DNA of 1,009 nucleotides from Escherichia coli (GTDB lineage Bacteria; Pseudomonadota; Gammaproteobacteria; Enterobacterales; Enterobacteriaceae), in the NCBI RefSeq assembly GCF_003334335.1, contig NZ_QOWQ01000130.1. The stretch is one strand, 5' to 3'. Both the position numbers and the translations under genes were made by a program. Within the stretch, counting starts at the first letter, position 1, and every line of letters begins with the position of its first letter. Positions 20 through 119 of this stretch are shown piece by piece. Below the pieces are notes generated by a model. It searched no databases and had not been told where the DNA came from. It saw only the letters and a program-made list of their open reading frames with translations.

Positions 20-24
20 AGGAG
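20..24 (+). promoter_or_regulatory. Shine-Dalgarno (AGGAG) for the mini-ORF at 32..109
   Basis: AGGAG with a 7-nt spacer to ATG at 32. Confidence 0.3.
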
Positions 25-31
25 TAAGCTC

Positions 32-109
32 ATGAGAGCGGCGAGACATCAGATTTTCTTTATATATCCGATGTTGAGCTGTTTTATTTGTATACAGATA
101 ATTTTATAG
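32..109 (+). CDS. Hypothetical upstream mini-ORF, 25 aa (MRAARHQIFFIYPMLSCFICIQIIL); could be a leader peptide, a small hydrophobic protein, or non-coding
   Basis: ATG at 32..34 lies 7 nt after a canonical AGGAG at 20..24. The frame runs to TAG at 107..109. The peptide has a basic N-terminus and an 18-residue hydrophobic tail. The region is AT-rich, which biases any frame toward hydrophobic codons, so coding status is uncertain. Confidence 0.25.
   Translation: MRAARHQIFFIYPMLSCFICIQIIL
74..102 (+). promoter_or_regulatory. Candidate sigma70 promoter for the adhesin gene: -35 TTGAGC (74..79), 17-bp spacer, -10 GATAAT (97..102)
   Basis: -35 matches TTGACA at 4/6 and -10 matches TATAAT at 5/6, with optimal 17-bp spacing. 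Predicted start is near 109..110, giving a very short leader. AT-rich DNA produces promoter-like hexamers by chance, and the transcript may instead start further upstream. Confidence 0.3.
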
Positions 110-111
110 GG
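108..111 (+). promoter_or_regulatory. Weak Shine-Dalgarno-like AGGG for the adhesin start at 120
   Basis: AGGG with an 8-nt spacer to ATG at 120. It overlaps the TAG stop of the mini-ORF at 107..109. Confidence 0.3.
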
Positions 112-119
112 TATACCAC

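Follow-up and report, generated by a model that had tools for sequence, protein, structure and literature searches.

The DNA analysed here, a stretch of 1,009 nucleotides from an Escherichia coli contig (NZ_QOWQ01000130.1, assembly GCF_003334335.1), is referred to below as the window. It carries the 5′ part of an adhesin gene which is 93.7% identical to eibA of prophage P-EibA (AF151091), and the product matches the structure of EibD (PDB 2xqh, E 4e-10); in E. coli prophages its annotation is that of a YadA C-terminal domain protein. The gene is an eib gene of an E. coli prophage, encoding an immunoglobulin-binding trimeric autotransporter. Eib and related proteins are known for immunoglobulin binding, serum resistance and chain-like adherence in LEE-negative STEC, and the control of Eib expression is poorly defined. 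The order of genes is the same at every locus compared: genes for the tail fibre and for the tail-fibre assembly protein (DUF4376) are followed by an unannotated gap of about 680 bp and then by the adhesin gene. In the AF151091 record, stem-loops are annotated flanking eibA. Two minus-strand coding sequences of 49 aa are annotated upstream of the adhesin gene in phage PhiR5_2; after translation they look spurious. The ibrAB genes have been reported as a requirement for Eib expression (Sandt et al. 2002, as cited in PMC7649339). A deletion has been complemented by eibG with 168 bp of upstream DNA in pGEM, where vector promoters could drive expression, and the construct is hence uninformative. 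No transcription start or promoter data for eib were found in a literature search whose coverage stopped short of the original Sandt papers (2000, 2002).

Just upstream of the adhesin gene lies a short open reading frame, which is called the mini-ORF below (Table 1). Its anatomy as given in a preliminary description of the locus holds in every coordinate: 25 codons, an AGGAG motif separated from the start codon by a 7-nt spacer, a TAG stop codon (107–109) overlapping the AGGG of the adhesin gene, and a gap of 10 nt (110–119) before the adhesin ATG (120–122). The statement that its SD is stronger than that of the adhesin was borne out as well, the predicted energies of the duplex with the anti-SD sequence being −6.9 vs −3.9 kcal/mol, and the former value is the best among the 26 ATGs of the window.

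Table 1. Features of the leader and of the 5′ part of the adhesin gene (positions in the window).
Feature	Position	Strand	Basis or details
Hairpin 1, 3′ arm (TTCGGAATTTC)	6..16	+	5′ arm (GAAATTCCGAA) 16 nt upstream, outside the window
AGGAG, SD-like motif	20..24	+	7-nt spacer (25–31) before ATG32; −6.9 kcal/mol
GCTCATG, 5′ strand of the long-range helix, contains ATG32	28..34	+	MFE and centroid structures
Mini-ORF, 25 codons, ATG start, encodes MRAARHQIFFIYPMLSCFICIQIIL; judged incidental	32..109	+	ORF translation, homolog comparison
Hairpin 2	35..85	+	Outer stem 35–42/78–85, inner stem 45–54/66–75, loop 55–65 (UUUCUUUAUAU); predicted fold
Sigma-70-like site TTGAGC-17-GATAAT, candidate promoter	74..102	+	Consensus score 9/12
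Palindrome / hairpin 3 (TTATTTGTATACAGATAA)	84..101	+	Overlaps the U-rich tract 82–90 directly 3′ of hairpin 2
AGGG, weak adhesin SD	108..111	+	Predicted anti-SD duplex −3.9 kcal/mol
CATGAGC, 3′ strand of the long-range helix, contains the adhesin start codon 120–122	119..125	+	Predicted fold
eib-type immunoglobulin-binding trimeric autotransporter adhesin gene, 5′ part	120..1009	+	Identity to eibA, annotation, EibD structure match

The expectation by chance was estimated with dinucleotide-preserving shuffles of window positions 1–125. An ATG-initiated ORF of at least 25 codons appeared in 14% of the shuffles, and an ORF of this length with an SD of −6 kcal/mol or better in 1.4%. The mini-ORF segment is rich in T, containing 31 T and 9 C among its 78 nucleotides (40% and 12%), and a second frame is also open, from position 34 to the TGA at 121–123. 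The encoded peptide comprises a basic N-terminus and an 18-residue hydrophobic tail. The T-rich composition and the second open frame indicate that both the openness of the frame and the hydrophobicity of the peptide are largely compositional. The strong SD beside an ATG is the only moderately unusual element of the mini-ORF. An exact lookup of four variants of the peptide in a protein collection gave no matches, which is uninformative for a sequence of 25 aa, a length below the limits of gene callers.

Loci nearly identical to that of the window were gathered from phage records, E. coli genomes, IMG/VR and metagenomes, giving a set of 57, referred to below as type A; the metagenome loci were fetched with a pattern spanning window positions 109–130, so the invariance of these positions is by construction. 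In the type A loci, a block of about 340 nt (from about −200 to +140 of the window) is nearly invariant, with π of 0.01–0.02, and its flanks, the adhesin coding sequence included, are highly divergent, with π of 0.3–0.5. This conserved upstream block may already have been noted in the papers of Sandt and Hill. The mini-ORF is the most variable part of the block, having 13 variable columns out of 79 vs 10 out of 178 just upstream. A comparison of synonymous and non-synonymous changes, which had been proposed as a check of the coding function, revealed 5 synonymous and 8 non-synonymous substitutions (R2I, R2T, A3T, A4V, H6Y, P13L, M14T and N16S); for transitions, a synonymous fraction of 0.29 would be expected (P = 0.33), and the scores of the other two frames resemble that of the mini-ORF frame. 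The substitutions look neutral, and this alignment of near-identical eib loci gives no sign of purifying selection on the peptide.

The signals around the ORF vary too. The start codon ATG32 is kept in 57 of the 57 loci and the SD in 54, the remaining three (L016, L030 and L059) having AAGAG in place of AGGAG; the AAGAG lineage has persisted in three haplotypes. An internal +1 frameshift, falling in the loop of hairpin 2, is present in a locus located on a low-coverage contig (L038). An extra T before the TAG was found in three or four loci (L009, L044, L058 and L080), where it moves the stop codon onto an ATGA overlap with the adhesin start.

As was found by a sensitive BLAST search with the conserved block, three diverged leader types with 71–76% identity are located, in the same synteny, upstream of other prophage YadA-like adhesin genes. 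In type B (L067, L070, L072, L078 and L079), CTGACAG stands in place of CTCATG, the SD is missing and indels are present; four of these loci (L067, L070, L072 and L079) have no ORF beginning with ATG, GTG or TTG across the region, and the fifth, L078, has no more than a TTG-initiated ORF of 11 codons in a different frame. Type C (L068, L069, L071, L074 and L075) keeps the ATG, but an indel of 1 nt puts the conserved nucleotides into another frame; the resulting ORF encodes 22 aa (MGAEIHQIFFIHLMYFGLFVYK), has an SD of −4.2 kcal/mol and stops 18 nt before the adhesin ATG. Type D (L077 and L081) also keeps the ATG, its SD is lost (+0.2 kcal/mol), and its ORF of 17 aa stops 32 nt before the adhesin ATG. 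A further motif scan of IMG/VR revealed no fifth leader type, and scans of genome contigs gave nothing except one chance match in an Aquificota MAG (L076).

Homologous loci without the start codon, with frameshifts, with early stops or with a lost SD thus exist, and loci with frameshifts or stops were what the preliminary description had named as speaking against the mini-ORF. A short ORF with a ribosome-binding site of its own is found in type A, is absent from type B, and has a weak SD in type C and a lost one in type D. The peptide does not behave as a conserved sensor or stalling peptide, the substitutions being neutral-looking and the frame shifted in types C and D. Nor is the proximity of stop and start conserved across leader types: most type A loci separate the two by 10 nt and four others by −4, the values for types C and D are 18 and 32 nt, and type B has no ORF. 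Judging by this comparison, the mini-ORF is not a conserved property of the locus family, and the related loci seem to keep a folded leader instead. The leader-peptide or translational-coupling role proposed earlier is possible for type A only and does not hold as a feature of the family.

The first element of the folded leader is hairpin 1, whose 5′ arm lies upstream of the window. This hairpin is a perfect 11-nt inverted repeat (2979–2989 and 3006–3016 in the locus L003), already annotated as a stem_loop in AF151091, and is predicted to form a 13-bp RNA stem of −13.8 kcal/mol (z −3.8). Variation in type A peaks in its loop, and its arms are conserved.

Hairpin 2 lies inside the mini-ORF. The string ATCAGATTTTCTTTA (window 48–62) is invariant in all four leader types and builds the inner stem and the loop; the loop UUUCUUUA and the inner stem CAUCAGAU/AUCYGAUG are invariant. 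The hairpin is predicted in every leader type, and the outer stems differ in sequence between types yet stay paired. For the window, the predicted energy amounts to −20.1 kcal/mol (z −3.65). The type C hairpin is a perfect 16-nt inverted repeat, giving 17 RNA pairs if one G.U pair is counted (−27 kcal/mol, z −6.6), and in type B a 10-nt insertion pairs with AAGCGGCC (−27.5 kcal/mol, z −3.2). Folding is much stronger for the plus strand than for the minus strand, with −20.1 vs −10.4 kcal/mol in the window and −27.5 vs −10.7 kcal/mol in type B, owing to five G.U pairs. This points to an RNA read in the direction of the adhesin gene and not to a DNA palindrome.

In a fixed register, 75% of the cells of hairpin 2 are paired vs 29–47% when the partner strand is slid. 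Changes on both sides of a pair were found in 11 cells, a count reached by 2 of 500 shuffles, but a slide by −2 gives similar or equal covariation, and the covariation of hairpin 2 can be called modest. The RNAalifold consensus obtained from sequence-based alignments is weak because the stem lengths differ between types. Within type A, C42U and A78G each mend the C42.A78 mismatch and C69U mends A51.C69; several of the stem-repairing changes are non-synonymous for the mini-ORF. Structure-compatible transitions in type A amount to 7 of 8, compared with an expected fraction of 0.67, a difference that is not significant. All the structures are predictions, drawn from four leader lineages only and from very little variation within type A.

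Downstream of hairpin 2, the palindrome TTTGTATACAAA follows in three of the four types, and its core TTTGTATACA (87–96) is invariant in types A, B and C. Variants with G97A turn hairpin 3 into a perfect palindrome. A U-rich tract follows hairpin 2 in types A, B (7 U) and C, and type D has neither the tract nor the palindrome. A scan with a terminator consensus did not call hairpin 2, the loop of which is 11 nt long. The search of Rfam 15 gave no match at the gathering threshold and only sub-threshold matches to generic hairpins. Resemblances to a LexA box, to IHF and Fur sites and to the RfaH ops element were noticed by eye only; the spacing or the sequence does not fit.

A further prediction concerns the adhesin start site. 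In both the MFE and the centroid folds, GCUCAUG (28–34) pairs with CAUGAGC (119–125) with a pair probability of about 1.0, and the predicted probability that the region of the adhesin AUG is unpaired is 0.00. A helix between the leader and the start site is predicted in all four types, with pair probabilities of about 0.8–1.0, and comparison of the duplex energy with that of shuffled 5′ segments gave p = 0.02–0.09 per type. The element that is paired is the AUG in type A and the SD in types B, C and D. The homologous strand of types C and D, CCUCAUG, is matched by (C)AUGAGG, a stretch that includes the adhesin SD; type B uses another 5′ element, AUCCUG, to pair with its SD, CAGGAU. If more of the 5′ sequence is included in the fold, the SD of types B and D is predicted to pair with the invariant AAUUCC instead, so the 5′ partner is not firm. 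The GGAA that corresponds to AGGAG in types B and C is part of, or adjacent to, a strand predicted to pair with the invariant AATTCC. The predicted pairing of the start site does not resemble an RNA thermometer, since in silico its unpaired probabilities barely change from 20 to 42 °C in the four types.

This complementarity bears directly on the conservation of ATG32. An upstream AUG is present where the start-site strand has AUG or CAUG (types A, C and D) and absent where it does not (type B). The sequence CAUG is self-complementary, and a strand that pairs with a CAUG start site must consequently contain AUG. The conserved ATG32 is thus explained without a coding function.

A search for transcription signals gave little. 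Two promoter-like sites were found vs 1.5 expected by chance, and no convincing sigma-70 promoter was found upstream of the leader. Neither hexamer of the site at 74–102 is conserved in types B, C and D, and types B and C yielded no sites at all. The candidate promoter reported inside the mini-ORF in the preliminary description does exist, but it is at chance level and is not conserved. Of the two alternatives offered there, co-transcription of the mini-ORF as part of a leader is favoured by the conserved plus-strand RNA structure, and a transcript beginning at the internal promoter is disfavoured. As a separate observation, a TAnAnT sequence conserved at window −32..−27 is a speculative promoter element.

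The reading that best accommodates these results, to which we assign a probability of about one half, is that the mini-ORF is an incidental open frame within a conserved, structured, probably non-coding 5′ leader of prophage moron adhesin genes, eib and its YadA-like sisters. Comparison of the homologous loci shows that conservation acts at the level of nucleotides and not of codons, the ORF being lost or shifted in homologs, and the predicted structure is specific to the plus strand in all four types. The leader would be composed of four parts: a 5′ hairpin whose 3′ arm lies at window 6–16; a long hairpin (35–85) with an invariant inner stem and loop and, except in type D, a U-rich tract and UUUGUAUACAAA behind it; a palindrome able to form a small third hairpin; and a long-range helix between the 5′ segment and the adhesin initiation region, which would bury the adhesin AUG. 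ATG32 would arise from complementarity to CAUG, the T-rich sequence behind it then being open by composition, and AGGAG would be the counterpart of the GGAA element, whose predicted partner in other types is the invariant AAUUCC.

On this reading, the leader would be transcribed from a point upstream of position 28. Sequestration of the start site would limit translation of the adhesin until the structure is opened by a trans-acting factor binding the loop or by ribosomes. Recognition by a trans-acting factor, or attenuation, is the probable role of hairpin 2, which together with the U-tract may also attenuate transcription. Against this reading, the mini-ORF may well be translated in vivo in type A, given the retention of its ATG and, in most loci, of its SD, which is predicted to be unpaired in this type, and a ribosome on the type A leader would be expected to disrupt the structure holding the adhesin start.

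The strongest competing explanation is confined to type A, and we regard it as rather unlikely. According to it, the mini-ORF is a functional cis-acting uORF whose peptide sequence is irrelevant and whose translation unmasks the adhesin start or allows re-initiation there. Ribosomes would load on AGGAG, start at AUG32, melt the 28–34/119–125 helix and hairpin 2, and end at UAG107–109 or at the AUGA overlap. Type A indeed joins the strongest SD of the uORF (−6.9 kcal/mol), the weakest SD of the adhesin (−3.9 kcal/mol) and the closest stop (10 nt, or −4 in 4 loci), and in the predicted fold the SD of the uORF is free and the adhesin AUG is held entirely in pairing with the region of the uORF start. 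Masking of this region as ribosome-occupied raises the predicted unpaired probability of the adhesin AUG from 0.00 to 0.64. The rarity of an ORF with such an SD among the shuffles (1.4%) and the presence of ATG32 throughout type A and also in types C and D agree with a uORF as well, but complementarity to CAUG explains ATG32 equally well. The ORF is, moreover, conserved no better than the surrounding non-coding block, its stop position is polymorphic within type A, and a lineage in which the SD is destroyed (AAGAG) has persisted in three haplotypes. Nor do the other types keep the arrangement: the start codon is missing from type B, and types C and D have a weak SD or none, their ORFs ending 18 and 32 nt short of the adhesin start.

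A second alternative places the function in DNA or in transcription termination, and we consider it less probable than the uORF. Hairpins 1 and 2 would be terminators or insulators of late-operon transcription, or operators serving, for example, IbrAB-dependent activation; the adhesin transcript would start in or after the mini-ORF, from the 74–102 site or from the invariant TATACA at 91–96, and the mini-ORF would not be on the adhesin mRNA. The promoter-like site at 74–102 is compatible with this scheme, as are the palindromes TTTGTATACAAA and GTGATATCAC, the U-rich tract after hairpin 2 in types A, B and C and the stem-loops flanking eibA in AF151091, a layout typical of morons. The dependence of Eib expression on ibrAB, reported by Sandt et al. 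(2002) as cited in PMC7649339, would also fit. Yet the site at 74–102 is no better than chance and its hexamers are not conserved in types B, C and D; a transcript starting there would be left with a leader of some 10 nt and a truncated SD, and no leader type offers TATACA a −35 hexamer at a workable distance. The stems depend on G.U pairing, and as RNA the plus strand folds far better than its complement. The complementarity between the leader and the adhesin start in all four types would also be left unexplained.

Finally, it is very improbable that the mini-ORF encodes a small hydrophobic membrane peptide or a type I toxin, a resemblance that the preliminary description saw in its basic N-terminus and hydrophobic tail, for the peptide varies among near-identical loci and is frame-shifted or absent in homologs, it has no NCBIfam or PHROG match, no minus-strand promoter-like site able to serve an antitoxin was found in window 1–400 (a consensus-only search and a weak test), and its hydrophobicity follows from the T-rich strand.

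The mini-ORF should not be annotated as a gene, a toxin or a conserved leader peptide. These loci retain a compact leader, about 140 nt long, in front of adhesin genes that are exchanged. The leader offers targets for mutagenesis, namely hairpin 2 with its loop, the 28–34/119–125 helix, and ATG32 with its SD. A broader proposal combines the leader with the uORF: eib and the sister YadA-like genes would share an undescribed cis-regulatory leader RNA, characterised by the UUUCUUUA loop and the start-masking helix, and the eib lineage would have recruited an unmasking uORF, so that the element could mediate growth-phase or IbrAB control. This proposal is put forward tentatively, and we consider it rather unlikely.

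Comparison with known systems helps to place the leader. The size and the hydrophobic tail of the mini-ORF recall the toxins Ibs, Ldr, ShoB, Hok and TisB, but the mini-ORF, unlike these, shows no peptide conservation, antisense RNA or family match. The likeness to the ermC, cat and cmlA leaders is superficial: with them the type A leader shares a short ORF with a strong SD and a downstream start that is predicted to be base-paired to the region of the leader ORF; it differs from them in that the mini-ORF has no conserved peptide or stalling motif and is absent or degenerate in homologous leaders. Termination-reinitiation is known from AUGA and UGAUG overlaps, as between the genes of the trp operon. 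The stop of the mini-ORF 10 nt before the adhesin AUG, and the AUGA overlap created in four alleles by a 1-nt insertion, are reminiscent of it, but the distance is not conserved (−4, 10, 18 and 32 nt, or no ORF) and the mini-ORF is not a conserved gene.

Phage morons have a promoter and a terminator of their own and are inserted in the late region, as are lom and bor of phage λ and those of HK97. The adhesin gene resembles them in following a tail-fibre assembly gene, in being flanked by stem-loops and in the presence of a sharp-edged mosaic block (window −200 to +140). The difference is that here the leader and the first 7 codons are conserved and the cargo, the adhesin gene, is swapped. The anatomy also resembles that of the rpoS leader, an inhibitory 5′ leader that is opened by DsrA or RprA with Hfq. 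As in leaders of the rpoS type, a distal 5′ segment is predicted to pair with the adhesin SD or AUG in each of the four types, and the invariant U-rich loop of the internal hairpin might be bound by a trans-acting factor. Unlike in these leaders, the paired element differs between the four leader types, the arrangement is known here from predicted folds, and the leader has no Rfam match. On computational evidence, the leader is a plausible further case of a start-site-sequestering element.

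The eib loci share a sharp mosaic boundary behind the leader. A block corresponding to window positions -200 to +140 (2800-3140 of L003, the collected locus containing the window) is near-identical in all of them and comprises the upstream leader and adhesin codons 1-7 (MSKKFTK), and beyond codon 7 there is strong divergence, both in what remains of the signal peptide and in the head domain. The MSKKFTK start is also found behind type B leaders, but is spelled with different codons (locus L079). Since the leader and MSKKFTK are fixed while the downstream sequence diverges, and since a type B leader is joined to a recoded MSKKFTK, the comparison suggests that adhesin genes have been exchanged cassette-like behind a fixed leader. 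In the type B locus of strain JNEC-KY202 (L067 2634-2678), the type B insertion differs at one position (GAGATGG versus GAGAGGG), and this difference produces an ATG that lies in frame with the adhesin start, 15 codons before it (MVAFFCIQRNYRIYQ-MNKKF...).

The type D locus of E. coli strain 48 (L077) follows a gene for a giant protein with an LPD38 domain, not the tail-fibre assembly gene, and the annotation of its YadA-like gene begins at an internal start codon (CDS 2467-3645 versus L077 2123). Because the identical leader of L081, also of type D, precedes an intact 506-aa ORF that has a signal peptide and starts with MGNRLLRR, the start or frame that RefSeq gives for L077 is probably incorrect, or else the gene there is disrupted.

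Sequence features in the window and in L003 (negative positions lie upstream of the window)
Feature	Window	L003	Strand	Characteristics
GC-rich hairpin with T-run		2446-2463	minus	scores as terminator
GC-rich hairpin with T-run		2575-2592	minus	scores as terminator
Palindrome GTGATATCAC	-46 to -37	2954-2963		perfect, 10 bp
-10-like TAnAnT	-32 to -27			conserved in position; adjoins the palindrome
TTG ORF, 42 aa	84-212		minus	antisense to adhesin start
Tandem repeat GAGCTTGATGCTCAGAAAGGC	747-826			21 nt, 3.8 copies, 93% identity

The palindrome core GATATCAC is common to type B as well. The adjoining -10-like element reads TATAGT in type A, TACAGT in type B, TACACT in type C and TAGGGT in type D, with TATAGC in its place in one locus, L058. 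This element, for which no -35 was found, would put a transcription start at the base of hairpin 1, the predicted stem-loop with its 3' arm at window 6-16.

Both terminator-like hairpins lie immediately after the tail-fibre assembly gene, in the upstream 680-bp intergenic gap left unannotated by PGAP. They are a hint that this gap holds a small RNA or a leftward transcription unit. Two minus-strand 49-aa CDSs annotated in this gap in phage PhiR5_2 look spurious. The antisense ORF is very unlikely to be real, as it covers the variable signal-peptide region. The sole match to the two-motif pattern in the genome-contig scan, an Aquificota MAG contig (L076), was rejected as an unrelated chance match, its surroundings being without similarity.

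Within the adhesin gene, the tandem repeat encodes ELDAQKG heptads of the coiled-coil stalk. The BLAST match to eibA breaks into three pieces, so the repeat copy number seems to differ from that of eibA.
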